Positions 4,654-31,300 of a stretch of DNA of 43,451 nt are shown in pieces. The translations under genes were made by a program, and so were the position numbers. The DNA is from an uncultured Planctomycetia bacterium. Its GTDB lineage: Bacteria; Omnitrophota; Gorgyraeia; 2-02-FULL-51-18. How positions within the stretch are numbered: position 1 is the first letter of the stretch; each line of letters starts with the position of its first letter. Under the pieces are notes generated by a model, which saw only the letters and a list, made by a program, of their open reading frames with translations, was not told where the DNA came from and ran no database searches. The stretch is from the NCBI GenBank assembly GCA_964543965.1, contig CAZJAX010000002.1, positions 1 through 43,451 on the forward strand. The letters are read 5' to 3'.

Positions 4654-4669
4654 TAAGGAAAGAATAAAC

Positions 4670-5677: not shown

Positions 5678-5728
5678 TTCCTGGAAAATTTGTAGAATAG
5701 ACTTAAACCTGTAGGTCGGGGGACGGGT

Positions 5729-6472
5729 ATGACGAACATGAAAACGCTGGCGGCTCTTAGCGTCCTGTGCTTTTTTTTCTCGGCGCAGGCTTCCGCAGAA
5801 ACGCGTCCGGCGCCCGCTTATACCAAGCCCAGCATTTCTGCGCCGATTCCCGCTCCTTCATTTTCCTACGTCATCGGCCCCGGCGACCAGCTGGATATCT
5901 CTGTTTGGCGCCACCCGGACCTGGCGGCGAAGGTCATCGTGAGGCCGGACGGCAACATCTCCTTTCCTTTTGTCGGGGAAGTGCGCGCCCTGGACCTGAC
6001 TATCCCGGAGCTCACGGAGAAGATCAGGATCGGTCTGGTGTCTGTCGTAAATCAGCCTGTCGTCACGGTGAACGTGCTCTCGTTCCAGAATCAGAAAGTT
6101 TTTGTGCTGGGTGAAGTCGCGCTTCCGGGCGTGTTCCCTGTCGACGGCCGTATCAGCGTCATTGAAGCGCTGAGCCGTGCTCACGGCTACAAGGCGGACA
6201 CTGCGCAGCTCAACAGCGTGATGGTCATACGCCGCGGCGGTCCGGGGGGAGCCGGCGCCCAAGGCTTCCGGCTGAATATCTGGGATGTCATCAACAAAGG
6301 CGACTTCAGCCAGGACATCACGCTGGCTCCAGGCGACATCGTGTACGTGCCCAAGACCTTCATCGCCAACGTCACGACGTTCATCCAGGAATTCTTCACG
6401 AAGACGGACCCCGCCGTCAAATTTTACCTCGACATGTATGACGCAGTCCATCCCGGGGTGCTGAACCGGTGA
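5729..6472 (+). CDS. Polysaccharide export protein (Wza-like, Poly_export plus SLBB)
   Basis: Signal peptide MKTLAALSVLCFFFSAQASA. YVIGPGDQLDISVW and the GEVALPGVFPV...ISVIEALSRAHG pattern are typical of outer-membrane polysaccharide exporters. Confidence 0.8.
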   Translation: MTNMKTLAALSVLCFFFSAQASAETRPAPAYTKPSISAPIPAPSFSYVIGPGDQLDISVWRHPDLAAKVIVRPDGNISFPFVGEVRALDLTIPELTEKIRIGLVSVVNQPVVTVNVLSFQNQKVFVLGEVALPGVFPVDGRISVIEALSRAHGYKADTAQLNSVMVIRRGGPGGAGAQGFRLNIWDVINKGDFSQDITLAPGDIVYVPKTFIANVTTFIQEFFTKTDPAVKFYLDMYDAVHPGVLNR

Positions 6473-7614: not shown

Positions 7615-7630
7615 CGGCGGCAGTCCTCGT

Positions 7631-11541: not shown

Positions 11542-14500
11542 TTGGGAAAGTATTGCCCCTTTCTTAAAGTAATATCCATAGTCTTAGTAATAGCTTTTAT
11601 GACGCAGGATGCGGCGATAAGCGCGCCCGAGGTCATGAGGGTTGCGGAGCGCTATGCCGAGCGCCGGCCTGACATCGAGTGGGCGCGCCGTCTTCTGCCC
11701 GCTATCCCAGAATCTGTGGCCGCGATCGAAGACGCCTGGAACGGCGGCGGCCGGCGCACCGTGCTTCTTGTGCAGGATGCCCACACGAATAATTCGGCGC
11801 AGCTGAACGAAGCGGCGCTCCTGGATATTTTGTATTCACAGACCGAGGATCTCTCGCGCCGCCTTTATCTCGAGGCCGGAAGCGGCGATGAATCGATCTC
11901 CTTTTTCAGGTCTTATGCGGAGGCAGAAAAGCGGCGCCGGGTCGCCAGAAATTTTCTCCTTCAGGCTAAGCTCCAGGGAGTCGAATACCTCGATCTGACG
12001 AGCGGACACGATTTTGTCCTTTACGGCGTTGAGGACATGACGCTTTACGAGAGATCCGTCGAGCTTTACCGCGCGATCTCGGGTAAGCGGGAAAAGCTGA
12101 AAAATTATCTCGATCGCGTGGAAAATACGGCCGAAGCGCTCAAACCCCGCCTGCTCAACCCCTTTCTTTTAGCCTTCGATCGAACGCGCCTCAAATATGC
12201 AAGGCAGGAGATCTCGACCACCGAATATTTCGGGCTTTTGGCGGCGCAGGCCAAGAGAATAGGCCTGCCATTTGAATACCCACATCTTAAAACCTTAAAC
12301 AAACTGCGAGAGGCTGAGCAGCGTATTGATTTTAGAAAAGCTTCTGAGGAAGAGCATCGCGCTCTCTTGTCGCTGCGCGATGAGGACCGCTTGCAGGCGC
12401 AGGAACTTCTGAAGGCTCCGTCTAAGCACGGCCAAAGGAACGACACCGCTTTTTTCCATCTTCTGAAGGACAAGATCGCTGATCTGCCGCTATATCCGAA
12501 CCTATCGCTTTATCTGGACTACCTGAAAGAGGCCGAGTCGCTCAATTCGAAGGAGATCCTGAAGGAACAGAGATCGCTCGAAGAGGCTATCGCTAAGGCA
12601 CTCACCGTCCATGCCGATGAGACGGCGTTGATGAAAGCGGTCGAACACGTGCAGGCGCTGAAGCAGCTGCTCTATCTGAAATTCACTCCCGACGATTACG
12701 AATCCTACAAAAAAAACCGCGGCGCTTCCGGGATCCGCGGGCTTACAGGATTTCTCAACCGAAAGATCATGGACGGGAAGGAGCACTACGACAAGACGCT
12801 CTTTTTGGAAGAAGGTTATGATGAAGCGGTGCGTGAATGCGAGAGTTTCTATGAGCTGACACGCGAAAGGGACCGGGCATTTTTGGCGAACATGACCGCG
12901 GCGGATGACGGGAAGCCGCTGCGCGTACTGGTCGCAGGCGGATACCACACGTCCAATCTGAAGGAGCTTTTGAAGAAACAGGGCACATCCTACATCTCTC
13001 TGATGCCGCAGGTTTTCAGCGAGACCAACATGGAGCGGTACGAAGAGATCCTTCTGGGGCAGAAGTCGGTTTTCGGAAAAACCTCGATCCCCGCTGCGGG
13101 TTCCGCCAACATGACGCGCCGTCAGACGCTGACTCCCGCCGGCGCAGCCCGTCTGGCTGAGGCGCTGGATCTGAGCGAAGCCCAGACGCGCGAAGTTTTG
13201 GCGTCTGCCGCCGCAAAAGGTTCCGGGGAAAATCTGCCGGCTCCGGGAGCGCGTTTGGCGGCTCCCGGCGAGATACCCCAAAAGAAGGCCGAAGCGGCGG
13301 CTTCCCGGCCAGAGATCATCCGTCGCAGCGAGGATAGGCTGCGTGCCGCCCTCCTCCAGAAGGGCAGTCTTGATCTTTTCGTCGGCGAGCTCGACGCGGC
13401 GCTGCGGTCCAAACTCCATCGCTTCGCTTTTCACGCGCAGATAGACAAGCTGGTCAGCGATAATCTGAACACGCAGCCCAGCCTCGCCACCGCGCTTCAC
13501 TGGAAGATCGAAGCCCTCAAGCAGGAGATCCAAGAAAGACGCTTCGAGGCGGTCAAAGGCATCATGTACCGCGACATCATCCAGTTTTACGAAGGAGACA
13601 AGTGGGGGATAGGAGATGTTTGGAACCGTATGCGGACCCTTGATCAGGGACGCATCACTCTCGACTACAACATGCTCTCGAAGCAGCGATACGGCATGCA
13701 GCTCAGGGAACCCGGAGATCTTTCCGACGAAGACTGGGAAGGCGCGATCGAAAAAATATTATCCGACCGCTCGGATGGCTCGGTCCTGATACAAAGCCTT
13801 CGCGGTGTGACCGGCAGGGACTGGCTCGCGGCCGCCGATATCGCGGCGCCTATCCATGTGATGCGCGTTCAGGAAGGTCTTTTCCAGGGCGTGTTTCTCG
13901 TCCTCGCGCCTCTCGGCGACGGAAGCTTCGTGCCGTTCATCCTGATGCTGGCCAAAAACACCAAGGAAAAGTCGGGGATCGTCGCCGAAGAATTCCGGCG
14001 GCTCGCGCCTTTCAGCTCCAAGGAAGGCATCGTGCATGTGATGAGGAGCGGTTCGGTGCCTGTCAAGGCTGCCGCGGACTCCGGCCAGCTGGCATTTTAT
14101 ACCAGCCGATTTCTCGATCATCACGACGAGGTGATCTTGATCTTTTCAAAAGAAAAGCCTGACGATCTCAGCCGGGTCAAGGTACGCTTCAATTCCAATT
14201 TTTTCTGGCGCGGATACGATTTCGAAAAGGATGAACGCGTAAACGAGCTTGCCGGCATGATCTCGCTGTTCGTCTATTTTTCCGAGCCGCAGAACGGCAC
14301 CATGATCGACGGTTTCAGTATCGGCGCCGGCGATGCTAACCATAACGAGCTCTATGAGCCCGGCTCAGCTCTGCCTGAGCGAAAGCATCCGCACACGCTC
14401 ATCGCATACAGAGGAAGTGTCCCGACAGACATCCCCGGTTTCATTTCCGAGCTTTTCGGCCTTCGCTATCTCGATACCTATTTTGAGGACTGGTCGAGCG

Positions 14501-17500
14501 CGGATCCTGCAACCAAGCAGATTCTTTATCGAAAAAGGGAGTCGGACTGGGTGCCTAGCTTCATCATCGACGCGGTGCTCGAAGCGCTGAAGCGGGGGTT
14601 GATCCGCAAATACGGCGAAACCGACGGGCCGTTGATAGCGCGCCAATGGCTCGAACATTATCTGAACCAGATCCGGCGCCGTCCCGAGCTTGAGCCTGTC
14701 ACCGTCTCGCCTCGCACGCACGTCCTCACCTCGCCGAAAAAACCCATCTTTACTCGCGCGCGCATCGAGCGGTTCATCCGAGAGGAGCTGACGCCCGGAG
14801 CCCGTCTGGCGTCAGACGCAGAAATTTACGGCCGTATGCTGGCGTTCGACGCGCGCATCGTGCCGCTCCAACAGAAAGCAGATCTGCTCGAAAGGAGGAT
14901 CGAATCCGAGGAAGGATCCGCACACGCATTTTTACCCGACGGTCATCCGCTGATCAAGCAGCTGCGTGATGTCCGGGCGGATCTGGCGGCTGCGCATCTT
15001 GAGCTCAAGGCCGAGATCCAGGCATATATCAAAGAGCCCGCGGCTGATGCGGCGGATCCCGACGCAGCCGGAGACCGCAACGAACGAGCGGCCGTGTATG
15101 ACGTCTTCGTCGGGTTTCAAGAAAGAACCTACGAGTCTCAGAGGCGCATTTGGACGATCAACCGGCGCCTGGCCCAGTTTGCCCGAAAGATGGGAGTGAG
15201 TACGCCGCATTTTACCCGATTAGAAAAAGCGGCTGACCCGCATTGGACGATGGATCATATCCTGAGAGTCACGATGAGAGCGATCCTCGTGGCGCACGAA
15301 TACGGCCTGCGCGGAAAAGAACTCAAAGAGCTGGCGCTCGGAGCGATGATCCATGATCTCGGAAAAACGAAAACATCCAAGTATCTTCTCAACGCGGTCC
15401 CCGCGGAAATGCCCGAGGGAGGGTATGACGAGATCCGGAAACACGTCATGACGGGCGGCGTGCTCTTCAGGGAAGCCTATCTTTATTTCGAATATCTGAA
15501 AAGAAGAACAGAGATCCTTGCGGCGGTCCAGCGGCGTGTGTCCGGCTGGATCTACCGCCTTTGGGACCGGCTGGAGAGTGTCGCGGGATGGGACATTTAC
15601 ACTGGGATCAAAGGGTCTCTGCCGCTGACAGTGGGTCCTATCAACAAGGTGCTGTGGGATATCGGCGATATCTCGAGGCTTATCGAGATCCCGGAACTGG
15701 AAGATATCCTAAAGGCCCTGCGCACGGATTCGTCTCTTTACCGCAGGGTCAGCCAGATCATTTTGGAGCATCATGAGACGCTTAATGCGACCGGATATCC
15801 GGACCGCATTAAAAATGAAAATCCGATATCGCACATCGTCCAGCTGGCCGACATCCATGACGCGGCGCGTTCGCCCCGCCCTTACAAGCGCACGCGGCCC
15901 AAGTCCTGGGAAGAGATCTCCGATATCAGCGCGCAGTTCAGCCGCAGCTCCGGCGTTCTTTTCCTGCCGGCGGCCGTGGACGCGTGGAAGAGGGTCGCTT
16001 GGGATAAGTCCGTCATCGGAGCGCGTTTATCCGATGAGAGGGCGGATGAAAAGAATGATTGGTCGGGATGGAAGGGCGTGGAATTTCTGCGGCTGAAGCA
16101 GGAGCTTGCCGGAAGCCTCTCGGAGCGCGACCGCGCGCTTCTGAAGGATATCCTGACGTCGGAATACGGCATGAATGCCGATAAGCTGGCTGATCTGATC
16201 AAGCGGGAGCCGGGGAAGGTTTATATCAAATCGGATGAAATCGATCCCACTTGGGGCGAGGGAAGAAAAGTCTATCTTGAGCTGGACGCCGAGAGTCAAA
16301 GGAATCTGGGGAAGAAAGTGCTGGCGCTCAAAGGCGTACGGCCGCAATACGACGAAACGGGAGAAGCGCTGCCTTACGACGATTTTATTTCTCTCGGGTT
16401 AGACCGCCGTCCTTTGGTGATCCGTGATGGAATGCTGGCGGTGGGCACCCCCGTGATCGCGCCTAAAGGCGGCATGGCAGAAAAACGAGCCGAGCTCGAG
16501 TATGACGAGATGGAGACGGCGGCTGTAGAGGCGGGTTTCGGCACCGAGACTGCGATGGCTCTGGGATATTTCAGCGGAAAGAATTTCAGAGGCCAAAGGC
16601 TGGCGTTCGTGATTTCGGCGCTGGATGGAACGGACGAGCGTCTGGCGATCGCGCCCGGCCGCTCGCGCAACGGAGAGGATCCTGTCCGCGTGCTGCACGC
16701 GTCGAACATGAAGGACGGAAACGGCACCCGGTTCTCTCTGCCCACGAGCCTTGAGTTCATGAAGGCCATAGGAAAGGCGCTTAGAGCCTATCATTTCAGG
16801 GAAAATCAAAGCCGCGCCTCAGGATCTCCGGTGCGCCGTTTTCACCGCTACCCGCACTTCGGAAATCTTGAGATCGTGCGCGATGCGGACTTGAACGTGA
16901 TCCGAGTCAACATTCACGACCTGGATACGACGTTAAGATCCGAAGATCTCGGGGCTGCAGACGCGGATCCGGAATTCCTGGAAACGGGCCACCGGATCAT
17001 CGATCTTCTGATGATCATCTATCTTTTGAATATGGAGTCCAGCATGGTGCCCTCCTCGGAGAGCTCCGCAGAGCTGACCTCGGCGTTTCTGGAGGGATAT
17101 TTCTATGATTCAGAGATCAAAAGCGCCAGGTTCCAGACCATGCTCGCGGCGCTGCAGAACCCCCTTCTTCACCGCATGGTCGATATGCTTAAGACAAAAC
17201 ATTTCGGGATCAATACGGATCTGTTCGGACCCTTAGGCGAACATCATCCGCTTCTAGGGGGTCTGTGGAGGGAGCTGTCGGAGCTGCGCGGCAGAGAGGA
17301 TCGGTCGATCTCGGCAGCGCGCTTAGCCGTCGACCGCGATGCTTTATCGGCTCAGTTTTCCGTCCTGGATAATCAGATCGACCGGAGCAAGCGCCTGCTT
17401 GTGTCCTCGGATGACGGAGGCCTGAAATTCGTCGATACAACGCGCGGAAGACTCGATTACGCCAAAAACCTTCTGCGGGACGGCGATGTGTATGACTTAC

Positions 17501-20500
17501 TCCTGCTTTTGAAGAGAATCAAGGCCGAGGTGCCCGCAAACGCCGCGTTCAGCGAATTTCTCTCAGAGCTCGACAAAGCGATCACGATGACGAGCGGCGC
17601 GCGTCTGAGCGCCGGCACCGATGATCCTTTGAAAGGCGCCGTCATTATCCGCTATGCCGACAGTTACAACACGCCGGGCGGCGTCAGCACGTATCTGCGG
17701 GATCTCAACCAGGGTATTTTGAGCGCACACGACGTGACTATCTACCAATTTCATCCGATCACCGGTAAGGAACTTATCAAGAAAACCTATGGAGAGATCG
17801 AGACTATCGGCAAGGGACGCATTATCCACATGCCGATCGACATGGGCGCTGTATTAACCGCGCCGTCAGACGCTGAGGCTCCCGTGGCGGCTGCGGGGGG
17901 CGTCCGGTCAAAGATCGGGTATTTCGTCCGCAACTTCGTGAATAAGAATCTGAAGGATTTCCTGCGTTATCTTTTATTCCTTCCTGAAATGCTTCCGATC
18001 ACGAAGCGGCTTCCCGTCGTCGGAGAGCGCGCAAGGAAGATCCTTCGTACCCGCGAAGCCTTTTCGGCCGGCCTCGATACGCTGCGAGCGTCCATAGCCG
18101 GAAAAAAAGTCCTTTTCATCAACCATAGCCCTGAAAATCCGCTTTCGCTTTCGCTGGGCAGGGAAGTGCAGCGCCGGAGTATCCCGGCGGCCTATCAGCT
18201 CCACGGCGGACCCGAGTTTTCAGACCGTCAGATCCTGAAGGTCCTTTCGAGGACTTCAAAACCTTCGGGCGTGACGCTGAGAAACCTGCGCTCCGCGATG
18301 GGGTATCGGGCTGAGAATCTGGCAGACGGCATCGACACTGATTTTTTTGATCCGGCGGCCTCCGCTTCGGAAAAGGGATCCTTCAGGCGGTCGCGCGGTC
18401 TCGATCCGGCCGCACCCCTGATCCTGCTGCCTTCGCGAATCACGCGAAACAAAGGCCACGATGTGCTGGAAAAAGCTTTTTTCGAGATCATGCGGCAGGC
18501 AAGGGATACCGGAAGACCTCTGCCTATACTGGTTTTTGCCGGAGACTCTGACGGTGAATTCGCTCCTGAGCTTAAACGCTTTGCCGAAGATCGCGGGATC
18601 GCGGATAGGGTAGTTTTCACCGGCAACCTTGCCGCAGACGAGCTGCGGAGGGCCTATCTTGACGCGGATGTGATGGTGCTGCCGAGCAAAGGCGAGGGTC
18701 TGCCGCGCGTGATCCTCGAGGCGCAGTCCATGCAGGTTCCCGTTGTGGCGACGGACGCCGGCGGTTCGCGTGAGGGTCTCGTGAACGGCCGTACCGGCTA
18801 TCTGGTGAGGATCGGTGATGCGGACAGCATGGCCAGACGGATCGCGGAGCTTTTGAACGACCCCGCAAAACGAGGCGAATTCGGCCGCGCCGGACGCCGT
18901 TATGTCTCCGAGAATTATTCTTTGAATACGCTGGTCGATAGGCATGCCGCATTTTATTTGAGATCCATGGGCGACGGTTCGCGCCTGGCCGCCAGCGTCA
19001 GCGAACAGCGTTTGCCGGCGGATCTGCCCAAGGATGCATTTATTTTGGTTCCGGTTTTCAACGAAGAGAAACGTTTGTCCAGGATCATCCAGAAGGCCCG
19101 CGAAGGAGGTTATCTCGACCGTGTAATTTTTGTCAACGACGCTTCATCGGACCGGAGCCTGGAGTATATAAAAAGCGTTCCCGACGCATTTTATGTGAGC
19201 TTCTCATCGAATCAGCAAAAAGAAGGCGCGCTTGCGGCTTCCCTGGATCACTTGGAGGCGGAGTATGTCCGCCGGTCGGTGCCGTTCCCGGCCTATTTTG
19301 CCGCCGTCGATGGAGATACGTATCTGGAGCCTACGTCGGGAGATTCTTCTGTGATCCGTGAACTTATGCTGGCCGCGGCTCAAATGAGGACCGAAGACCT
19401 CAAGGCCATGAGCTTCCGCATACGAGCGGATCTAGACACGTCTTCGACAGCCATGCAGTGGGTGCAGGCAGTTGATTGGGCGATTTCCGGCGGCAGGAGT
19501 ATTCCGGGCGGCGGCACGATCTACGACGCCGCTGTATTTAGAGAAAGCATCAAAGCCTCCAAAAAGGGATTTTTCTCACGTCCGATCGAACTTAAACGAT
19601 GGTTTAAGGAGAACGGGTACAAGATCGGGCGCGCATTCCAGGGGTTAACGGCAAAGACCGAAGTTGAGACGACGCTGAAAAGGTTTATCCGGGAGAGAGG
19701 CAAGTGGGCCTACGGATTTCAAGAGTGGTATGGCAGAGCCGTATTCGCGGCGATCGTTCTCGCGGTCGACCTTATCTTCGGGTTCATCTTGTTTCACGAC
19801 GGGATCTTTAGCGGTTCGGCAGCAGGGACCATCCTGCTTTCTGCGGTGTTGACGGGAGCGTCTCTGAGTCTTTGGAAAATATGGCGGGGAATAAAAGCAT
19901 TATTTTATTTGACCGGATGGTTTGGCAGGCCCAGCTCGCCTAAAGCTGGGCGTATGGACATCCTGCTTCTTTTCCTTCCGCTCACCTTCGCCACTTTGCT
20001 GGTCTACACGCTTTATTCCCACAGAGCGCTCTTTCTTGATTATTACACCTCTCCGCCGAAGAGGCCGGACACGGACGAGTCTGACGCAGAAGGCGCGCGT
20101 CTTGCGGGGGGCAGCGCTGCCGAGCAGCGGCGCTATCGTGCGCTCTTCCGGCAGGTCATGAATCTCTTGGACATGACGGACCGTGCGGACGTCAAATTGA
20201 AATTCAACGCCGTGAAGCGTCTCCGGCAGCTTCAGGCTGCGGGACGGCGCCGGCGGCTGGACGGCCGCATCGCGGCGCCCATCGAGCTCATTATCGGACA
20301 TCTTAAGAACGGCCATATCTGGCCATCGCGCCAGATTTCCGTCGCCTATTTCCTCCTTCGTGTTTCCCGAGAGGATTTCGGCCGCTCTGTCCGCATGCTT
20401 TTGGGCGTCATCCGATATGACGAACAGATGCACCAAGATCCGAGCCGTGGCGCCGTCAGAGACATCGCCGCGGAACTTCTGAAGAAGATCGCTCTCGATT

Positions 20501-22794
20501 CGGCCAACCAGCGGAATCAGAATAAATATAAGACCATTCTCTCGATCCTGGATGAAGAGCTTGCTGTGTCGAGCGGAACATCCGAGCATGGACGCAGGCT
20601 GACGAATATAGCCTCGATCATCCGCTCTTACGATAAGTCCGGCGCACGTCTGGCGGCCGGCCGCAGTTATATTTCCGGGGGTAAAAACGTGGACCCCGCA
20701 TCGGCGGAAACGGACGCGCATGATGATTTTTTCAGAACAAGCGCGCTGGATCCCTCGGGCACGTTTTCAAAAAGGATACGGGTCGAGCCGCTTACGCCGG
20801 GAGGATCCGACCGGCAGGATCCGCAGATCCCCGGCGGGAACGCGGCGAAATTCGTAAGCGGGCTTCCTGCGCGCTCGCGGGACGCTCTGAGAAAGATCTT
20901 AAGCCGCGCGGCGCGGTCCTCCGGCGACCTTCCTGTTCTTCGGATCTTGCCGGACGAAAGCGGGACGCTGGCGCTGGATCTCGAGCTCTATGACCGGACG
21001 CCTTTCGAAAATTTTGAAGGTGGTTTTGAGACCGAAAAGCGGGGCATCTACTTGGGCGGCGGCTATATCCGCATCGAAAGATTCAGCAGCGCCAGACACT
21101 TGATCCGGATACGTTTTCCGAAAGCTCCGGTCATCCGGATGGCTGGCTGGACTTCCTGGAAGGATATCGAAAAGGCAAGCGACCGGTGGAAGGGCGAGGA
21201 TGCCGGCAGCGCCAGCGGCCTCACTGCGGAGCATCTGATGTATGCTTTCGATTTCGGGAATCCGGACCGCGTCATCCGGGAAACCGCCCCTGATTTTTCC
21301 CCTAAAAGCGCCGCGGTGATCGGCGCCTACAAAAATTCCGCGGATATCCTGCGCCTGCTGAAAACGTTCCCGTCGCTCGAAGAGATCCATCTTCTGGATA
21401 TCGACGGCTATTCGAAAGCGTTCTTTGAGCTTGAGGAGGACCTTGAGCGGCTCAGACGCGAGGAAGCGGCCGTATTCCCGAAGATCTACGGCTATCGCGG
21501 GACGATCGTCGAAGCGCCGTCCAAGCTTTCCGGCAAGATCGATCTGGTCTACGATAAGTATGTCTTTGCCGACTCCTATTTTTCGCGCAGCCAGCTTTTG
21601 CAGAGCGGGCGGGAGATCCAGCGGCTTCTGCGGGACGGCGGCGTCCATATTTCCGGGGGCAATGCTCACCGTTTCACGGAGGATCTTTATGCCGGATCGC
21701 GGATGAAGATGCTGGCCGATGAGGGCGATTACACGGTCTATTTCAAGCGGCAGACGAAAGAAGAAAAGGACGCGGGCGCCCGTCTTGCGGATCAAGGACG
21801 CCTTACCGAAGCGGAGAAGCAGGATCTCAAGCTCTATCTAGCCGCGATCTCAAAGGAGAACGCCGCGCCTGTGGAAGCAGGAAAACATTTCGCGGTACAG
21901 TTTGGCGCCGGCGTTTTTGAATTTCGCCCTTCGCGCGGGGCGGGCGGATCGCTGGATGTGTACCTGGCCGGCCGATCCGGCGCGGAACCTGTCGTCAGTC
22001 TGACGGCGGATGATATCAGCCGGCTGCTCGAGCTCCGCAGGACAAACCCAGGTTCATTGAAACAGGATCTCGTGCAGGGCGCGATGACGGCTATCAAGCT
22101 GCATGACCAGGCCGTGCTTGCAGCTTCCGCTGTCGAAGATCTTAACGCCGGCTATCCGGTGAACATCGCGTTTCCTATGAGCATCTTCAGCGACCTTGAG
22201 GGCGATGAGCTCGACGCGCAGATCCGCTTCCAATTTCTGAGGCTGCAGGAATTTCATAAAACGAAGTACGGCCGCAGCACGACATTTTATCTGTACGGCG
22301 CGCCGGAACACCGTGTTCTCGAGGCCGTGCAGCAAAACATCGAGCCGTTCTCGGGCTTCATCCGCCTAGGGCGCCCCGAGCACGCAGTCGTTTACGTCGA
22401 CACGGATGAGAATGCGCTGCCGGCGCTGGCCGCCTCTCAGCTTTCGCTGCCGACAGGAAAGATCCCGAAGAAGGGCGTGGGCAACCTATGGGCGCTGGCG
22501 GCGCAGGGCCTGCGCGGATGGCACGACGCTTCCGCGGGCGGCATATTCGCGGCCGATACGCTCGTCCCCGGCGACATCAAGAGCTCGTCGCTCAACAGTT
22601 ACAACACGCTGGCCATCGCCAGCGTCGATGCAGCCGGATATGCGGCGATCGCGGGCCACAAAGAAAGCGCAGGCGAAAGCGTGCTCGGGCGAATGAAAAA
22701 ACATTTACTCCGGGGCTACATCCCGATGCCGGTGGACATCGACGCATCGATGGTCATCGCAGCGCTGATACGTATGAGCGAACGCTCCGCCTGA
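11542..22794 (+). CDS. Giant multidomain protein (3750 aa): N-terminal anchor, TraB/GumN-like module, unknown module, HD-GYP, kinase-like(?) module, GT4, GT2 with TM helices, helical module, Rossmann MTase-like module, C-terminal module
   Basis: Uninterrupted 11,253-nt ORF. The TTG start lies 6 nt after GAGGT. Domain motifs are listed in the sub-features. The first ~540 aa are paralogous to ORF 25356..31457. Confidence 0.9.
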   Translation: MGKYCPFLKVISIVLVIAFMTQDAAISAPEVMRVAERYAERRPDIEWARRLLPAIPESVAAIEDAWNGGGRRTVLLVQDAHTNNSAQLNEAALLDILYSQTEDLSRRLYLEAGSGDESISFFRSYAEAEKRRRVARNFLLQAKLQGVEYLDLTSGHDFVLYGVEDMTLYERSVELYRAISGKREKLKNYLDRVENTAEALKPRLLNPFLLAFDRTRLKYARQEISTTEYFGLLAAQAKRIGLPFEYPHLKTLNKLREAEQRIDFRKASEEEHRALLSLRDEDRLQAQELLKAPSKHGQRNDTAFFHLLKDKIADLPLYPNLSLYLDYLKEAESLNSKEILKEQRSLEEAIAKALTVHADETALMKAVEHVQALKQLLYLKFTPDDYESYKKNRGASGIRGLTGFLNRKIMDGKEHYDKTLFLEEGYDEAVRECESFYELTRERDRAFLANMTAADDGKPLRVLVAGGYHTSNLKELLKKQGTSYISLMPQVFSETNMERYEEILLGQKSVFGKTSIPAAGSANMTRRQTLTPAGAARLAEALDLSEAQTREVLASAAAKGSGENLPAPGARLAAPGEIPQKKAEAAASRPEIIRRSEDRLRAALLQKGSLDLFVGELDAALRSKLHRFAFHAQIDKLVSDNLNTQPSLATALHWKIEALKQEIQERRFEAVKGIMYRDIIQFYEGDKWGIGDVWNRMRTLDQGRITLDYNMLSKQRYGMQLREPGDLSDEDWEGAIEKILSDRSDGSVLIQSLRGVTGRDWLAAADIAAPIHVMRVQEGLFQGVFLVLAPLGDGSFVPFILMLAKNTKEKSGIVAEEFRRLAPFSSKEGIVHVMRSGSVPVKAAADSGQLAFYTSRFLDHHDEVILIFSKEKPDDLSRVKVRFNSNFFWRGYDFEKDERVNELAGMISLFVYFSEPQNGTMIDGFSIGAGDANHNELYEPGSALPERKHPHTLIAYRGSVPTDIPGFISELFGLRYLDTYFEDWSSADPATKQILYRKRESDWVPSFIIDAVLEALKRGLIRKYGETDGPLIARQWLEHYLNQIRRRPELEPVTVSPRTHVLTSPKKPIFTRARIERFIREELTPGARLASDAEIYGRMLAFDARIVPLQQKADLLERRIESEEGSAHAFLPDGHPLIKQLRDVRADLAAAHLELKAEIQAYIKEPAADAADPDAAGDRNERAAVYDVFVGFQERTYESQRRIWTINRRLAQFARKMGVSTPHFTRLEKAADPHWTMDHILRVTMRAILVAHEYGLRGKELKELALGAMIHDLGKTKTSKYLLNAVPAEMPEGGYDEIRKHVMTGGVLFREAYLYFEYLKRRTEILAAVQRRVSGWIYRLWDRLESVAGWDIYTGIKGSLPLTVGPINKVLWDIGDISRLIEIPELEDILKALRTDSSLYRRVSQIILEHHETLNATGYPDRIKNENPISHIVQLADIHDAARSPRPYKRTRPKSWEEISDISAQFSRSSGVLFLPAAVDAWKRVAWDKSVIGARLSDERADEKNDWSGWKGVEFLRLKQELAGSLSERDRALLKDILTSEYGMNADKLADLIKREPGKVYIKSDEIDPTWGEGRKVYLELDAESQRNLGKKVLALKGVRPQYDETGEALPYDDFISLGLDRRPLVIRDGMLAVGTPVIAPKGGMAEKRAELEYDEMETAAVEAGFGTETAMALGYFSGKNFRGQRLAFVISALDGTDERLAIAPGRSRNGEDPVRVLHASNMKDGNGTRFSLPTSLEFMKAIGKALRAYHFRENQSRASGSPVRRFHRYPHFGNLEIVRDADLNVIRVNIHDLDTTLRSEDLGAADADPEFLETGHRIIDLLMIIYLLNMESSMVPSSESSAELTSAFLEGYFYDSEIKSARFQTMLAALQNPLLHRMVDMLKTKHFGINTDLFGPLGEHHPLLGGLWRELSELRGREDRSISAARLAVDRDALSAQFSVLDNQIDRSKRLLVSSDDGGLKFVDTTRGRLDYAKNLLRDGDVYDLLLLLKRIKAEVPANAAFSEFLSELDKAITMTSGARLSAGTDDPLKGAVIIRYADSYNTPGGVSTYLRDLNQGILSAHDVTIYQFHPITGKELIKKTYGEIETIGKGRIIHMPIDMGAVLTAPSDAEAPVAAAGGVRSKIGYFVRNFVNKNLKDFLRYLLFLPEMLPITKRLPVVGERARKILRTREAFSAGLDTLRASIAGKKVLFINHSPENPLSLSLGREVQRRSIPAAYQLHGGPEFSDRQILKVLSRTSKPSGVTLRNLRSAMGYRAENLADGIDTDFFDPAASASEKGSFRRSRGLDPAAPLILLPSRITRNKGHDVLEKAFFEIMRQARDTGRPLPILVFAGDSDGEFAPELKRFAEDRGIADRVVFTGNLAADELRRAYLDADVMVLPSKGEGLPRVILEAQSMQVPVVATDAGGSREGLVNGRTGYLVRIGDADSMARRIAELLNDPAKRGEFGRAGRRYVSENYSLNTLVDRHAAFYLRSMGDGSRLAASVSEQRLPADLPKDAFILVPVFNEEKRLSRIIQKAREGGYLDRVIFVNDASSDRSLEYIKSVPDAFYVSFSSNQQKEGALAASLDHLEAEYVRRSVPFPAYFAAVDGDTYLEPTSGDSSVIRELMLAAAQMRTEDLKAMSFRIRADLDTSSTAMQWVQAVDWAISGGRSIPGGGTIYDAAVFRESIKASKKGFFSRPIELKRWFKENGYKIGRAFQGLTAKTEVETTLKRFIRERGKWAYGFQEWYGRAVFAAIVLAVDLIFGFILFHDGIFSGSAAGTILLSAVLTGASLSLWKIWRGIKALFYLTGWFGRPSSPKAGRMDILLLFLPLTFATLLVYTLYSHRALFLDYYTSPPKRPDTDESDAEGARLAGGSAAEQRRYRALFRQVMNLLDMTDRADVKLKFNAVKRLRQLQAAGRRRRLDGRIAAPIELIIGHLKNGHIWPSRQISVAYFLLRVSREDFGRSVRMLLGVIRYDEQMHQDPSRGAVRDIAAELLKKIALDSANQRNQNKYKTILSILDEELAVSSGTSEHGRRLTNIASIIRSYDKSGARLAAGRSYISGGKNVDPASAETDAHDDFFRTSALDPSGTFSKRIRVEPLTPGGSDRQDPQIPGGNAAKFVSGLPARSRDALRKILSRAARSSGDLPVLRILPDESGTLALDLELYDRTPFENFEGGFETEKRGIYLGGGYIRIERFSSARHLIRIRFPKAPVIRMAGWTSWKDIEKASDRWKGEDAGSASGLTAEHLMYAFDFGNPDRVIRETAPDFSPKSAAVIGAYKNSADILRLLKTFPSLEEIHLLDIDGYSKAFFELEEDLERLRREEAAVFPKIYGYRGTIVEAPSKLSGKIDLVYDKYVFADSYFSRSQLLQSGREIQRLLRDGGVHISGGNAHRFTEDLYAGSRMKMLADEGDYTVYFKRQTKEEKDAGARLADQGRLTEAEKQDLKLYLAAISKENAAPVEAGKHFAVQFGAGVFEFRPSRGAGGSLDVYLAGRSGAEPVVSLTADDISRLLELRRTNPGSLKQDLVQGAMTAIKLHDQAVLAASAVEDLNAGYPVNIAFPMSIFSDLEGDELDAQIRFQFLRLQEFHKTKYGRSTTFYLYGAPEHRVLEAVQQNIEPFSGFIRLGRPEHAVVYVDTDENALPALAASQLSLPTGKIPKKGVGNLWALAAQGLRGWHDASAGGIFAADTLVPGDIKSSSLNSYNTLAIASVDAAGYAAIAGHKESAGESVLGRMKKHLLRGYIPMPVDIDASMVIAALIRMSERSA
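11749..13041 (+). other. N-terminal module of giant ORF 1, TraB/GumN/Tiki-superfamily-like with a large helical insertion
   Basis: TVLLVQDAHTN (aa 73-83), YLEAGSGDE (aa 109-117) and RERDRAFLANM...LRVLVAGGYHTSNLKELLKKQGTSY (aa 441-484). The last block resembles the ERNxxW....VAVGAGHLxG..G....L...GY block of TraB/GumN. Confidence 0.4.
15214..15951 (+). other. HD-GYP domain (c-di-GMP phosphodiesterase family) inside giant ORF 1
   Basis: MIHDLGKTKTS (H1271 D1272), IRKHVMTG, ILEHHETLNATGYPDRI (G1418 Y1419 P1420) and IVQLADIHDA. Confidence 0.8.
17632..18957 (+). other. GT4-type (GT-B fold) glycosyltransferase domain inside giant ORF 1
   Basis: LLPSRITRNKGHDVL and VLPSKGEGLPRVILEAQSMQVPVVATDAGGSREGLVNGRTGYLV carry the E-x7-E region of retaining GT4 enzymes. 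Confidence 0.8.
19036..20040 (+). other. GT2 domain of processive-synthase type followed by 3-4 TM helices, inside giant ORF 1
   Basis: FILVPVFNEEKRL, VIFVNDASSDRS, AAVDGDTY (DxD) and RERGKWAYG (resembles Q/RxxRW). These are followed by the hydrophobic helices AVFAAIVLAVDLIFGFILF, AAGTILLSAVLTGASLSLW and MDILLLFLPLTFATLLVYTLY. Confidence 0.65.
21310..21665 (+). other. Rossmann-fold, class I methyltransferase-like module inside giant ORF 1
   Basis: AAVIGAYKNS (degenerate motif I), EIHLLDIDG (motif II acidic), KIDLVYDKYVF and QRLLRDGGVHISG match the methyltransferase order, but motif I is atypical. Confidence 0.35.
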
Positions 22795-25355: not shown

Positions 25356-28300
25356 TTGGTAAAGCTGTCCCGATTTATTAAAGTCATATCCATAGTCTTA
25401 GTCATAGCCTTTTCGGCGCAGGACGCCGCTTTGGCGGCGCCGGAAATACTTGACCTTGGCGCATCATCTAAAAATGAAGTCCGCGCTCATCTCAAATGGG
25501 CTCAAAGGACGCTTCCGCCGATCCCGGCTTCCGCAGCATCCATTGATGATGCGTGGGACGCCGGCGGCGGCGAAGTGGTCCTGCTTATCCAGGACGCCCA
25601 CACCAATGAATCGGCGCAGCTTAACGAGGCTGCCCTGCTGGACGCGCTTTATGCGCGCGCAGGAGATCTATCTTCTTACGTCTATCTCGAGGCGGGAAGC
25701 GGGGACGAGTCGCTGTCGTTCCTGCGCCGTTATGCGCCGCAGGATGTGCGCCGACGCGTTGCTAAAAGCTTTCTTCTGCAGGCCAAGCTGCAGGGTACCG
25801 AATATCTGGATCTTACATCGGAATACCCGATGACGCTGTACGGCGTCGAAGACATGCAGCTTTACGCGCAGTCCGTCGCGCTCTACCGGCTCGCTGCGGC
25901 CGAAAGGCAAAAGTTTCTGCTGCATCTTGACCGGATACAGTCGACCGTCGAAGCGCTTAAACCGGACTGCCTGAACCCCATCCTTCTTTCATTCGACCGC
26001 GTTTATCAGAAACGGCAAAAAGGCGAGATCCCGCTTACGGAATATTTTCGGACGCTCGCACGTTATGCCGAGACGCTGCAGATCGCTTCTGAATACCCAC
26101 ATCTTAAACTCTTAAGAAAACTGAATGAGCTTGAAGAAAAGATCGACTTCGATAAAGCGGCGGAGGAAGAGGCGAAAGCGCTTTCATCTTTGAGCGAGGA
26201 AGAACAAGGCGAAGCGCGCCGCGCGATCAGCGAGCCGTCGCGTCTGAACGGCAAGCACCAAAGCGCATTCTTTGCGTATCTGGATGCGCGCATAAAAGAT
26301 AAAAAAGCCTACCCCATGCTGGCGCGCTATCTCGAATATTTGAGGAGCGCGGACGAGCTCAATTCCAGAGAGCTTCTCGCCGAGCAGACGCGGCTCGAAA
26401 ACGATATCTTCGGGGCGCTTACGGCCGGAGCTGACGAGGCTGCGATGCTGAAGGCCGGCCGCAGCGCAGACGCGCTTAAAAAGCTGCTGGCGCTGCAATG
26501 CTCGCCTGAGGAATATGAAGCTTACCGAAAAGACAAAGCGGACTTCGATGTGCGGGCGATCACCGGATTTTTAAACAAGAAGATCATGGACGCGGGTGAC
26601 CGCTACGACAAGGCACTTTTTCTGGAAGACGGCTATGAGGAGGCTGTGCGGCGCTGCGAGCAGTTTTACGAGCTTACGTATGCCCGCGACGAGGCGTTTC
26701 TTAAGAATATGGAGCGCGCCGGCGACGGAAAGCCGATGAAAGTCCTTGTGGCGGGCGGGTATCATGCCCCGAACCTCAAATATCTTTTAAGGAAAAAGAA
26801 TATTTCCTACATCTCCATAGCGCCTCGGGTGCTGCAGGAAACAAACCTCAGGCGTTATGAGGATATTCTGCTGGGCCGCAGCCAGCCAGGTCAGGCCGGA
26901 TTCGGGGCGCTCGCGCGTCATTCAGGAAATATGACGACAAGAACGTTTTTCAACGGAGGCCTTCCGGAGCTGGCGGCGGCTCTGGATCTGACCGAGTCTC
27001 AGACCACGGCGGCTTATGAGATCGCGGCGTCCAGGCTCGCTAATGTACGCACGGCCGGGGCGCAACCTGCAGCCGCGCGGATGGCCTCAGCGCAGAGTCC
27101 CGCTGTTTACCTTAAAAGCCGCATCCACATGAGATCCGCCTATCACATCCTGAGCGAGACGGAAATGCTGGAGAAGCTCGAGGATCTCAAAGTGTTCTTC
27201 AGGCATATCGCGCCTTCGGGGGCGCTTGAGTCAGAGCGGCACGAAATGGGCATCCTGAACTTGACGCTGCAGTCTCCCAGACTCCAAGCGGGAGCAGGGC
27301 TCGTGATCGTCGCTGAAAGCTCGACCATTCCCGAGCCGGTTCTGAATCGAATCGCCGGGTACGTCGCAGCGGTCCTCGATGCCTATGTTGACTTCAACGC
27401 TTCGGGCGCTCCCGAGGAGTCCTCGCAGATCCGTCTGGACGAGCTGCGGGTGTCATTTTTTGGGGATTTGGACGCGCTGGGTTTTGACATCGATCCGGCC
27501 GCGGGCGCGCGTCTGGCTCAAAACGATACCTCTGTTTTTCGGCGGAGAGTCTCCGGCAATATTCTGAAAGCGGGGATGCAGAACGGCGTGTTTAGCGTGA
27601 GCCTTGCGGATCTTTCTGCCTACCTGAAGGGTTCCGTCGACGGCCAGCGGTATGAAGTCCATTACGCGAACGCTTTCGCGCTTCTAAAAGATCTTGTGCC
27701 GGATCTGTCGCGCATGGGCGTGCGCCGCATCTATCTGAACGGCATGCTTTATCCGGTCAGCGAAATCTCGAAACTCATTCATACGGTTCCGCACGCCGGA
27801 GAACATTTTTTCAAGAGCGGCCGAGCGACGATTCGCGTGCACAATTATGCCACGAGCCGCACGGATATCACGCTGCCCTCGGGAGGCACGCTCGTGCTGA
27901 CGGACCGTGAAGGAAACTCCTTTTCGCCTCCGACGATGATGCGCTTCAATCCCCTCCACTCGGCAGATCCTGCTTCGGTGAGGGTCTCGGGCCTCGACCC
28001 TCAGCGCACGGAAAGTCCGGATCTCGACCGAGAGTTTGAAGAGCTCGTCAAGGCCGCGGCGGCGGCAGGGGTAGGTATCGATTTTACCGTCGATTTCATT
28101 CCCTGGTTCTCCTCAGACTCTGTGGATGAAACGAATTATAAACGGTTCTTCTACCGAGAGCTTCCCGAGCACCTGAACAGACAGTACCGCGAAACAAGCG
28201 GGGACGGCCGCAGCCTCTGGGTACAGAACCTGGTCCGCATCTCCCCGGGCTGGTTCGCTGTGGAGCTGCCGGAAGAAGGAAGCGACGACAAAGAAAAGAC

Positions 28301-31300
28301 GACGCGCGTCATTCTCGTCAAACACCTTGAGGGCACCAACGTCGATCAGGCGATCCCCAATCCGTACCACCCGGATAACAGAGCCTATTACCGCAAAGTG
28401 TTCACGCGATTTTTTAAAATGGGCGTCTACAGCTTCCGCGTTGATCTGGGGCATCTGCTTCTGAAAAAGAATACCCGAGGCTATTTCCAGGAAGTCGGCT
28501 GGCTCAACGGGCAGACGGGCGAGACGCTGGAGGCTTGGATCGGCCGGTCCGGGATGAAATATGACGCGGCGTCCAATCCTGACGGGATCAAGGACGGTGA
28601 AAGTTTCGACTCCTGGTGGAGCCGTCAAAAGGATATTTGGGACGAGACGCTGGGCATCATCCACAGGGGGACCGCGCAGACGCCGGAACTCGTTTTCGAA
28701 ACCTATTTGGACTCGGATCAAAACGAGATCCTCGCGATCACTCCGGCCGCCGTCTATTATAAAGGACTTTTTTCACGCATCACGGCCTTCCTCGCACAAA
28801 ATAAGGACGACTCCTCAGCCCAGTCGTTCCGCGAGATCATCGATTTCATGGTGGAGATGGGTCCGTTCTTATGGGGATTCCTGAGTAATTTTGACCAGAA
28901 CGCTATCGTAAATTTTCTCAAGAAGTTCGGCTGGGACGAAAAAACGCTGCACTCCTTTTTGGCTATGGCCGTCGCGGCGCAAAGCATCGGAGCCGTCATT
29001 ATGATCGACGAACCCGAGTGGTACGGTCTTTCGGGACGGCTGCTAAAGACCGCCGGCGGCAATAACCCTGCCGATTTTGAGAGCTTTCATCCCTTCATCG
29101 CGGCCGGGCGGCGCAGGGAACTGCAGGATCGCCTGGCTTTCGTGCAGGCTGATGACGGAGTGCCGCGCATCGGCGATAAACGCATGCTCACACAGAGTCC
29201 GATGGCTCAGGTGCTCGCCCAGTTCCCCAGCGGGTTCTTGGAATCCGAGATCATCGATTATAAATACCTCGACAATTCCTTCGATAAACGCTTCCTCACG
29301 TTTGCGTTCGAGACCAAAGAGCACGACTGGTACGTCGTCGCGATCGATATGAAGCCGAAGAGCAAGCGCGAATCTTCGCCGGCCAAAGAAAAAAATCTGC
29401 TTCAGGTCAAGCTGCCCGTGTCCGCTTTTCCATTGTCTGTCCCCGCGGAAGCGCTCGACTCGCAATTGAACCGCATTCCCGGAGCCGAAAATTTTGCAAC
29501 GGCTTGGGTCGGCGCAAACTCCTCCGACAGCTATCTCGTCGGCCTGAGCTACAACTGGGAGACGGGTCACTGGAGCGAAGGCGATCCAGGCCTGCCCGTA
29601 CGCGTGATAAAGATAGGCGCCGTGATCCCCAAAACGCGCGCTCCGGCCCCGGAAGAGGGCGATCTGCACGCCAGATCACTCGAAGCTTTGACAAAGTTCC
29701 GCACTCACCAGCTCTATAATTTTTTAGCGCGTGAAATAGCGGATCCCAACAGAAACGAAGAGAACCAGTCCGAAAAAAGGAAAGCGCTTCTTGCGTCCAT
29801 GCTGTATCCGGATTACTGGGTCCGCGGGTACGCCGCCAATACAGCCGCCTTCCGAGTGCGGCGCGAAGGCGCAAGACCCCAAGTCTACTTTTCTCCGGAG
29901 CTGCTGGACAGGCATTCCCGCGATCCCCTGATCTCTATCGGGCATTACGACGGATGGAATCCTGTGCAGAAATACGGCATGGCGTTCGGCGAGCTGGAGA
30001 AGCGCCATGCCCGGCGCAATAAAAGGTACGCCATCATCTGGACGATCTCGCATCTGGTCACGGAATGGTCTTCGGACGCCGAACGCATCCGTTTCCGCCG
30101 CGCTTTCCGCAACAAGCTATCCAGGCTTCTTGAGTCGCAGGCCGATGCCTGGACTCCGGAAAGGGACTTGGAGCTTCACCGCATCGCCGATGAGGGATTT
30201 GACCGCTACATGATAGGCGACCCGTCCCCGCTTAATCTGCTGGAACTCATGCGCCTAGTCCGCTTAAGAAGTTTCCGTGAAGAGAAGCTCAAAGCGGCCA
30301 ATTCCAAATACGAAGACCCCAAGGCTTGGGTCATCCGCGAGGTGAACTTTATTCTCGATGCGCAAACCGACCTGCGCCTCCGCCAGATCGTAGACAAGCC
30401 CGAGGCGTCCGCCGCGCGCCTGGCTTTTTCGTCTGAGCCGCTTGAATTCCGCAGCGCCAGGCCCCGGCGTCTCGGAATGGCGGCGTTTCTGCTCGGCGTG
30501 TATGACGGCCAAAAGAGCCGGGTCGATCGTCCCGGCAGCCGTATCGCGCTGGGCGAGGCTGTTTTTCATCTCGAGGCCCGATCCGAGCCGAAGAGGACGC
30601 GGCTGATCCTTCGTCACGGAAACAAAATTGTATACTCGATCGGAAATGTATCGAGAGCCGCCGAGATCATGAACCGGCTCTCTGCCTCCCGGATCAAGAC
30701 TTTGAAGCGCAGCGGGATGGCGTCGCTCCTCAAGGCGGCCCGGGCGAATCTGGCGGAGCTGCTGCCTCCCGCCGATCACGCCGAGGCGCTCGGCGCTGTC
30801 GAGATCGATCTTTCCCAGTTGGCGGAAAGTCTCCTGGCTGCCCGTGTTCCGCCTGAAGAGGCGCTAGAAGCCGTCAATATGCTGCTGTCCCAGGCGGCTC
30901 GACAGAGAGGCAGGTTTTTCATCAGCCATACGGACGAGGCTTATTTCAAGCAGTGGAAAGGTTTTTCGATCGATGAAGCTGTCGCGCGCGCCCGCCTCAA
31001 GAACGCTCTTATCACAACGATCCGGCCCCAGGGCCTGGCGATCGCAAAACTTCACTTCGATACGGGTGCTGAGCAGATCTCAGTCTCTCTCGGGCGGGGG
31101 GAGGTGGCGGCGCACGTGTCGGGTTTTATGAACGGCCAAGTTCCGGATTTTGCGGCGGATCTGCGTATCGCCCAGGAAGCGGCTGAGTTTTATGGAAAAC
31201 ATCTCGAAGACGGAGAGATATCCAGCGATACCGCCGCGATCGTGGCCGATCTGGAGAGATCAGCGCTTTTAAAAGCGCTCCGGTCTTTATCTGTCGACGG

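Follow-up and report, generated by a model that had tools for sequence, protein, structure and literature searches.

What purpose might be served by five residues that recur, almost unchanged, throughout a single giant bacterial protein? The question is raised by a 43,451-nucleotide stretch of DNA (the window) from an uncultured Planctomycetia bacterium placed by GTDB in the Omnitrophota (contig CAZJAX010000002.1, positions 1 to 43,451 of the forward strand). Positions 11542..22794 of the window form on the + strand a single open reading frame (ORF) of 3750 codons, open from a TTG start, whose translation contains ten copies of a pentapeptide of the form [GA]-[AS]-R-[LM]-[AST]. From the placement of this motif, its statistics and its behaviour in relatives we infer, with a probability of about 0.6, that a bacterial polyprotein is recognised and cut at this motif.

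A first-pass annotation, made by a model from the letters of the window and their translations, had listed ten motif positions, and direct reading of the frame locates all ten (10/10) at those coordinates. The single adjustment concerns the first copy, entered as GAARLA at residue 534 (13141), which is present but in which the Gly is residue 534 and the pentapeptide AARLA itself begins at residue 535 (nucleotide 13144). L, A and R are abundant in the protein. The copies were counted against 20,000 composition-preserving shuffles of the 3750-residue sequence. GARLA occurs five times (shuffle mean 0.028, maximum 2), GARL[AS] seven times (mean 0.047) and [GA][AS]RL[AS] ten times (mean 0.19, maximum 4); not one of these counts was reached in any shuffle (0/20,000), confirming the excess over composition that had been roughly estimated at the outset. 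GARLA is also the only pentapeptide found more than twice in the ORF. The codons differ among copies (GGA, GGC or GGT for Gly; GCG, GCC or GCA for Ala; CGT or CGC for Arg; CTG, TTG, TTA or CTT for Leu), so it is the peptide that is conserved and not the DNA, as had been proposed. The same variation rules out a DNA-level repeat or recombination signal.

Along the chain the copies alternate with modules. The ORF opens with a hydrophobic, Sec-type-signal-like segment bearing an A-x-A site (residues 10-28, VISIVLVIAFMTQDAAISA; 11569..11625) and continues with a conserved N-domain (residues ~40-510; 11659..13071). Behind it lies a double site, consisting of motif 1 (AARLA, residue 535; 13144..13158) and motif 2 (GARLA, residue 569; 13246..13260). 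It is motif 2 that falls, in alignments with homologs, on their conserved first junction P-A-R-L-A. A module with one hydrophobic helix (residues 784-802) and no known domain (residues 574-1085; 13261..14796) reaches to motif 3 (GARLA, residue 1086; 14797..14811), and the next segment (residues 1091-1492; 14812..16017) is an HD-GYP-type phosphohydrolase with an HD / HD_5 Pfam match at residues 1237-1451. Motif 4 (GARLS, residue 1493; 16018..16032) is followed by a module without a known domain (residues 1498-1924; 16033..17313), motif 5 (AARLA, residue 1925; 17314..17328) by a short one of 89 residues that is likewise without one (1930-2018; 17329..17595), and motif 6 (GARLS, residue 2019; 17596..17610) by a complete GT4 glycosyltransferase of the GT-B type (residues 2024-2478, Pfam match 2281-2453; 17611..18975). 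Between motif 7 (GSRLA, residue 2479; 18976..18990) and motif 8 (GARLA, residue 2851; 20092..20106) sits a GT2 glycosyltransferase (residues 2484-2850, Pfam match 2501-2576; 18991..20091) whose segment also holds hydrophobic helices at residues 2733-2751 and 2807-2825. A 178-residue module with no known domain (2856-3033; 20107..20640), motif 9 (GARLA, residue 3034; 20641..20655) and a 373-residue module (3039-3411; 20656..21774) complete the cargo, and motif 10 (GARLA, residue 3412; 21775..21789) stands immediately ahead of a conserved C-terminal domain (residues 3417-3750; 21790..22791). The tail of this domain, AALIRMSERSA-COOH (22759..22791), contains a degenerate motif copy (IRMS) and then the terminal Ser-Ala. 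The earlier claim that each catalytic module sits alone in one segment thus stands for the HD-GYP, GT4 and GT2 (with helices) modules, all supported by Pfam, and is unconfirmed for a methyltransferase-like ('MTase-like') module at residues 3038-3412; neither Pfam nor PDB sequence searches returned a match for this region, and that label is unsupported.

The motif had been described as an oddity of one ORF, which it is not. A second paralog of 2033 residues (25356..31457, +), starting 2.5 kb downstream of the giant ORF and with an N-domain 56% identical to that of its neighbour (25362-26888, hmmsearch 1e-192), carries ASRLA at 27027, AARMA at 27072, GARLA at 27504 and AARLA at 30411, all on the + strand, ahead of a C-terminal domain (30426-31454) that ends in KQAEAAA. 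A search with the first 1103 residues of the giant ORF found homologs that match the first ~500 residues only; past that point they carry other domains (kinase, HEAT, low-molecular-weight phosphatase, HATPase) together with G-A-R-L-A strings. Scanning one genome per species gave 229 confirmed loci, with several paralogs in many genomes. Among the 79 loci listed with record titles, about half are Candidatus Omnitrophota/Omnitrophica and most of the others 'uncultured Planctomycetia'; Auribacterota and Eisenbacteria account for a few. An N-domain profile built from 5 sequences recovered 8,421 cluster representatives at E <= 1e-3 among 1.84 billion, and in the best 150 of these the N-domain is N-terminal and lengths range up to 7,011 residues. 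The family is large, mostly from Omnitrophota, and undescribed.

Counts across this family leave little room for composition. In 83 ORFs with an N-domain (181,000 residues) GARLA occurs 166 times against 0.71 expected, a ~230-fold enrichment, and the loose motif 341 times against 6.4, whereas 394 ordinary ORFs from the same contigs (133,000 residues) are at expectation for GARLA (1 against 0.5) and hold 9 loose motifs against 3.9. An independent set of 125 representatives (407,000 residues) gave 445 GARL[AS] against 3 expected. The sequence logo carries information at five positions only, with uninformative flanks, and a position scan gives G far above A at the first position, A far above S, G and T at the second, R only and never K at the third, L and M equally ahead of A and F at the fourth, and A above S above T, G and V at the fifth. 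Signal-peptidase I sites and double-glycine C39 sites are ruled out, as the logo has neither upstream hydrophobic nor leader conservation. The broad pattern has a background of its own: ordinary proteins rich in A, R and L show a 2-4-fold enrichment of AARLA-like strings, and in 58 free-standing glycosyltransferases the broad pattern occurs at ~4 times the level expected from composition, mostly as AARLA in helices, with just two instances of the strict form.

Spelling of the motif is specific to the genome. GARLA prevails in CAZSGP and CAYODQ, CAMDWQ is rich in AARLA, CAYJVC uses GAR[ML][AT], and JBLINS has x-[AS]-R-M-[AST] (19 against 0.62 expected). Such a dialect is common to the paralogs of one genome despite N-domains that are only ~40% identical, and in one genome it is paralog-specific, locus L028 using AARLA throughout and locus L063 mostly GARLA. 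A spelling that is specific to the genome, even among such divergent paralogs, is the pattern expected from co-evolution of a protease with its substrates.

We then consider where the motif falls relative to folded units. The first motif lies at a median of residue 575 in the 125 representatives, just past the N-domain, and successive motifs are spaced by a median of 252 residues (interquartile range 133-475). None of ~14 Pfam domain envelopes in four members holds a motif. In locus L015 (9968-21541), malate synthase, isocitrate lyase, a 2-hydroxyacid dehydrogenase and adenylate kinase occupy one inter-motif segment each, so that both enzymes of the glyoxylate shunt are found in one chain; position 1 of the isocitrate lyase model begins 14 residues past the start of a motif. 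Coincidence with the limits of a free gene was observed for the GT4 module of the window: residues 15-468 of a free-standing 483-residue GT4 (P0154) align to residues 2025-2473, covering in full the segment that motifs 2019 and 2479 enclose and starting 6 residues behind the former. In an AlphaFold2 (AF2) model of residues 2000-2870, the per-residue confidence (predicted local distance difference test, pLDDT) is 96-98 in the C-terminal half of the GT4, drops to 42 at model residues 481-490, where GSRLA occupies 480-484, and returns to 68-81 in the early GT2; the other two motifs in this model are also at pLDDT <50. The expectation that motifs would fall in predicted linkers therefore holds for those at 569 (pLDDT <50), 2019, 2479 and 2851, and does not for AARLA-535, which sits in a confidently predicted short helix. 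The Ala-initiated copies (535 and 1925) are singly less certain than the Gly-initiated ones. Around 810 sites of the family, the five residues on each side are poor in hydrophobic residues (0.23 against a background of 0.325) and rich in flexible and polar ones. The motif marks the boundaries of whole enzymes, in short flexible linkers of ~15 residues.

In many family proteins two sites follow the N-domain at a distance of 15-40 residues from each other, as at 535/569 in the giant ORF and 558/573 in paralog 2. The stretch between 535 and 569 is predicted to form short helices (pLDDT 55-87). If both sites of the pair were cut, a small peptide would be released.

The motif is also respected in evolution. 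High-scoring segment pairs from paralog BLAST comparisons outside the N-domain span a motif in 9 cases, against 32 +/- 3.7 under random placement, and 54% of their ends lie <=30 residues from a motif. The closest relative of the giant ORF, locus L001 (CAZCVC010000006.1, 6071-12499; N-domain 66% identical), keeps a motif at 5/5 alignable junctions with altered spelling, so that conservation at orthologous junctions, which the first-pass annotation had suggested as a check, is upheld. In L001 the counterparts of motifs 3 and 10 are GSRLS (from GARLA), that of motif 4 is GSRLA (from GARLS), that of motif 8 is AARLA (from GARLA), and that of motif 9 is GARLA in both. The window stretch between motifs 1493 and 2851 (16018-20106), i.e. 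a cassette comprising the uncharacterised 427-residue module, the 89-residue module, GT4 and GT2, is replaced in L001 by 636 unrelated residues, with motifs 4 and 8 at its left and right edges. L001 further has an insertion of ~87 residues directly after the motif that matches window residue 1086, and it conserves the 178-residue module between motifs 8 and 9. Since orthologous junctions keep the motif with changed spelling and varied codons, we conclude that it is under ongoing selection. The closest free-standing GT4 homologs, P0154 and P0155, contain no match to the loose motif and do not end in AA or SA.

Members of the family share a frame that consists of a short hydrophobic N-terminal segment, the N-domain of ~510 residues, cargo made of unrelated enzymes with [GA]-[AS]-R-[LM]-[AST] between them, and a C-terminal domain of ~335 residues; the N-domain, the C-terminal domain and a terminal Ala are present in all motif-rich proteins. 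The N-terminal segment is conserved (consensus ISxxLxxxFxxQxxAxAAP), is partly identical to that of paralog 2, and resembles a Sec-type signal carrying an A-x-A site, so that it is a putative signal peptide. The full 3750-residue sequence is absent from the cluster collection. Database gene callers begin the giant ORF at Met20 (P0012, 3731 residues) and call paralog 2 as 2008 residues (P0013, ~25 residues shorter), and both calls omit KVISIVLVIAF. This string is identical between the two window paralogs and conserved among homologs. Their TTG starts are more likely than the database calls to be the real ones.

The C-terminal domain was detected by an iterative hidden Markov model (HMM) built on family tails, which finds it, at ~335-390 residues, in 100/131 complete members and in the window protein at 1e-35; as a single-sequence query it returned no homologs, and it has no Pfam match. 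A motif precedes it in nearly all aligned members. Among complete members, 42/47 end in Ala and 39/47 in AA or SA, compared to 2.7% of control ORFs, and a degenerate copy of the motif is usually found 4, 8 or 12 residues ahead of the C-terminus, a spacing with helical periodicity. The Ala tail and the degenerate copy may together form a C-terminal recognition signal.

Cysteine is depleted 7- to 10-fold in the family (0.15% in the 83 N-domain ORFs and 0.097% in the 125 representatives, against 1.09% in neighbouring ORFs). The giant ORF has Cys only at residues 5 and 433, and L015 has 2 Cys in 3858 residues, one of which is the catalytic Cys of isocitrate lyase (KVCGH motif). With the catalytic Cys spared, the cargo enzymes of L015 look functional, and the depletion suggests that the chain is handled in an unfolded or oxidising context.

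In order to rationalise these observations we propose that the whole train of enzymes is made as one polypeptide, which would probably be exported or otherwise handled in an unfolded state, a step that would account for the almost complete loss of non-essential cysteines. Thereafter an endopeptidase of defined sequence specificity would cut the chain at the motifs and set the enzymes free. The scissile bond is proposed to lie between L/M and A/S, with a hydrophobic P1 and a small P1' residue, or alternatively between R and L, because Arg is invariant and never Lys, the fourth residue is L or M (seldom F or A) and the fifth is small. One motif stands at each junction, including that after the N-domain, where it is often double, and that before the C-terminal domain. 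We favour this polyprotein reading because the consensus is context-free, the motif is exposed in linkers at enzyme boundaries, the Arg is invariant, a hydrophobic-small pair follows it, spelling goes with lineage and the frame is shared. The processing-site hypothesis put forward at first pass is favoured by the short, flank-free, boundary-placed and family-restricted nature of the motif, and the cutting itself is the step that we infer.

Which protease might act on these sites? The N-domain, found always with the motif, is the leading candidate for the family's own processing enzyme, tentatively a TIKI/ChaN/TraB-type hydrolase. Its AF2 model (mean pLDDT 77.5) shows a split alpha/beta core with a helical insertion of ~290 residues, and D79, H81, N83, E111, E164, R443, D444, G466, G467 and H469 are invariant in 65 sequences. 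D79-x-H81, E111 and H469 come after predicted strands, the Glu ~30 residues past D-x-H and followed by G-G-x-H. The TIKI / TraB / PrgY / ChaN / erythromycin-esterase superfamily includes the endopeptidases Tiki1/2 and RRSP. In RRSP, the TIKI-fold endopeptidase of MARTX, the 2His/2Glu set reads E3900-x-H3902...E3930...H4030 (PMC6254334). The D-x-H...E...H of the N-domain has the same order and similar spacing as this set in RRSP and Bcr135 (PMC6254334), but its first acidic residue is Asp where RRSP has Glu, and its core is divided by the helical insertion. Pfam ChaN (PF04187, TIKI superfamily) matches 15/65 members, in each case short of the curated threshold (best E 0.0015), compared to <=3-4 members for chance Pfam families, and one ChaN match with known coordinates falls on the GGYH segment. 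PDB sequence and profile searches with the N-domain returned low-complexity helical matches only. It is the constant company of the motif, the invariant D-x-H...E...H and these sub-threshold ChaN matches that make the N-domain the leading candidate; the link to TIKI/ChaN hydrolases is weak and sub-threshold, and we regard such a protease role as possible.

Short low-complexity inserts recur in frame at varying places within N-domains that are conserved elsewhere (P0006, P0007, P0008 and several loci such as L013, L023 and L047; e.g. ...RIEDRGLRIEE...SSILNP... and ...QIASSPSAPRND...). They resemble a small repeat element of the genome whose copies are translated and tolerated in coding sequence.

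Several observations weigh against the polyprotein reading. Pfam detects no protease domain on the whole giant ORF or on any of its segments, an NCBIfam scan of the N-domain gave nothing, and the N-domain core with the insertion deleted has no Pfam match. Aligned by hhalign to the E. coli TraB-family protein YbaP, the N-domain matches in the expected register with E = 0.23, which is not significant. Foldseek with the N-domain model against PDB gave 0/112 matches at E <= 0.001, and the 50 matches listed are long-helix proteins without any TIKI structure (2G5G, 3B55, 5T09, RRSP) among them; the helical insertion may mask the core in such a search. The TIKI superfamily, moreover, includes non-proteases such as haem-binding ChaN and the erythromycin esterases. 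As regards the motif, 7/125 long members lack its loose form, residues 722-1685 of paralog 2 (964 residues) are motif-free, and individual Ala-initiated copies may be due to chance. Finally, the cargo includes a GT2 with membrane helices as well as enzymes that depend on nucleotide sugars or ATP and hence on substrates from the cytoplasm, and this conflicts with the export that the Sec-like signal and the Cys purge suggest. The same paradox has been noted in the literature for other Omnitrophota giants.

Foremost among the alternatives is that the motif acts at each junction as a short linear linker element which is never cut and to which some partner binds (a chaperone, a scaffold, part of a secretion or translocation system, or one of the protein's own two terminal domains), the chain staying intact as multi-enzyme 'beads on a string'. 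Exposed flexible junctions and restriction to one family would fit this equally well, genome-specific spelling could also arise by co-evolution with any binding partner, and the published Omnitrophota giants are treated as membrane-anchored multi-enzyme clusters, with no evidence of cutting given. We nevertheless consider it unlikely. A repeated, context-free boundary motif of five residues is typical of cleavage sites, with precedents in viral polyproteins, MARTX toxins and multi-core peptide precursors, and its hydrophobic-then-small pair resembles P1/P1'. The double site after the N-domain has no obvious docking role. Furthermore, isocitrate lyase normally acts as a homo-oligomer, and a tether of 3,800 residues would hinder homo-oligomeric cargo of this kind.

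Cleavage might also be carried out by a separate protease encoded elsewhere, the N-domain having an anchoring, transport or esterase role. An example would be a PDZ-containing S41 peptidase of the Prc/CtpA type that docks on the Ala-Ala or Ser-Ala C-terminus, and a trans-acting C-terminal processing peptidase reading the Ala-Ala end is a serious rival. The C-termini favoured by Prc/Tsp are small and non-polar, and pre-D1 is cleaved by CtpA at L-D-L-A|A, 8-16 residues before its end; in the family the C-terminus is nearly always AA or SA, with a degenerate motif copy a few residues upstream. A dialect common to paralogs with divergent N-domains fits one enzyme per genome, and the assignment of the N-domain to TIKI lacks significance. 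The split between L028 and L063 within one genome, in contrast, fits specificity in cis better, the strict co-occurrence of motif and N-domain would be left unexplained, and no such protease is linked to the loci: the only peptidase nearby in the window is an ordinary M50 peptidase at 41660-42286. Across 79 loci no neighbouring gene is conserved, the largest neighbour cluster being histidine kinases in 6/79, and hence no dedicated adjacent protease or transporter accounts for the motif; a conserved neighbour of either kind is ruled out. On balance we think a protease acting in trans quite unlikely.

That the motifs are relics of terminal tags on once-separate genes, fusion scars or a compositional accident is very improbable and effectively refuted, since the L, A and R content of the protein and the modest over-representation of AARLA-like strings in ordinary proteins stand against shuffles that never match the observed counts, a family enrichment absent from neighbouring ORFs, free GT4 homologs (P0154, P0155) that are devoid of both motif and AA end, and a junction motif that is actively maintained with new spelling and varied codons.

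How does the polyprotein reading compare with systems that are understood? MARTX toxins and viral polyproteins come closest. MARTX are the multifunctional autoprocessing RTX toxins of Vibrio and relatives, and their effectors are freed by cuts in short inter-domain linkers after Leu and before a small residue. Like the family described here they are giant and modular, with conserved N- and C-terminal regions around variable, unrelated effector enzymes, and cassettes are exchanged between relatives in both. Pfam, however, finds no C80 cysteine-protease domain in the whole protein or in any segment, and no RTX or A/B/C repeats, and there is no ABC/MFP/TolC type I secretion set among the window neighbours. 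The family differs further in that its site is a full pentapeptide with an invariant Arg, its N-terminal segment is Sec-like, its cargo includes core metabolic enzymes and it comes from uncultured Omnitrophota.

Viral polyproteins (picornavirus 3C, potyvirus NIa, alphavirus nsP2, coronavirus Mpro) have a short consensus at every boundary, in exposed linkers, with a small P1' residue, lineage co-variation and the protease in the same chain. The family has in common with them a short conserved motif at unit boundaries in exposed linkers, and the only universally conserved candidates for an in-chain protease are the N-domain and the C-terminal domain, which matches no family. Here, by contrast, the genes are cellular and chromosomal, with many paralogs per genome, and the cargo consists of metabolic, signalling and glycosyltransferase enzymes. 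A viral origin is rejected, as no relatives of the family were found in IMG/VR viral contigs. Motif-directed cutting of large bacterial precursors is known from the Porphyromonas gingipain/HagA precursors and from Mycoplasma hyopneumoniae P97/P102 (S/T-X-F|X-D/E); these differ in being adhesin or protease precursors with few sites, other motifs and other secretion routes, and no shared domains were detected.

The giants described from Omnitrophota itself ('Archaeovorins', 'multi-enzyme metabolic cluster') come from the same phylum and are likewise tiled by many unrelated enzyme domains, including central metabolism and GT4, with a signal peptide and a few transmembrane helices. They are catalogued at >=10,000 residues, compared to 3750 here and to <=7,011 among the best 150 family representatives. 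For these published giants C39/S8 peptidase domains are invoked (West-Roberts et al. 2023 preprint; 10.64898/2026.06.07.730766), their cleavage points are stated to be unknown (West-Roberts et al. 2023 preprint), and both papers raise the question of whether they are single chains or are cut into many proteins (West-Roberts et al. 2023; 10.64898/2026.06.07.730766). Neither paper mentions the motif, the N-domain, the Ala tail or the cysteine depletion, and full-text searches found no published description of the motif.

The motif offers concrete candidate cleavage points in a family that comprises at least 8,421 sequence clusters, and it turns an open question into a testable one. Giant ORFs can be divided in silico into modules for the prediction of structure and function, and metaproteomic data can be mined for semi-specific termini at these sites; the Cys depletion that spares a catalytic Cys, the Ala-Ala or Ser-Ala end and the genome-specific spelling can each be tested as well. 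If cleavage is true, this would be the first large-scale polyprotein system with core metabolic enzymes in cellular organisms, and it would add a new pair of sequence-specific protease and site. The ultra-small Omnitrophota are presumed to be predators or to depend on a host. A bolder version, which we hold to be doubtful, is that they use a virus-like polyprotein strategy in which dozens of paralogous enzyme trains per genome are exported or delivered unfolded, cut themselves by means of an N-terminal TIKI-like peptidase and are freed outside the producer cytoplasm. Were this so, export or delivery in an unfolded state would explain the Sec-like signal, the loss of cysteines and the C-domain ending in Ala, and stoichiometric sets of enzymes (malate synthase with isocitrate lyase; kinases, phosphatases, glycosyltransferases) would be supplied, possibly within prey or host.

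The neighbours of the two paralogs in the window are a polysaccharide synthesis and export cluster and housekeeping genes. The cluster (802-9091, +) lies upstream of the giant ORF and encodes a GT2, a B12-radical SAM protein, a polysaccharide deacetylase, an initiating sugar transferase, an oxidoreductase, a Wza-like exporter, a Wzz-like protein and an O-antigen ligase/Wzy-like protein, in agreement with the GT4 and GT2 cargo of the giant ORF. Between the two paralogs lies the gene of a DUF255 thioredoxin-like protein whose C-terminal part resembles a glycoside hydrolase (22848-24674, +). A DUF255 gene is also found 3' of the ortholog in L001, so that the arrangement is syntenic.

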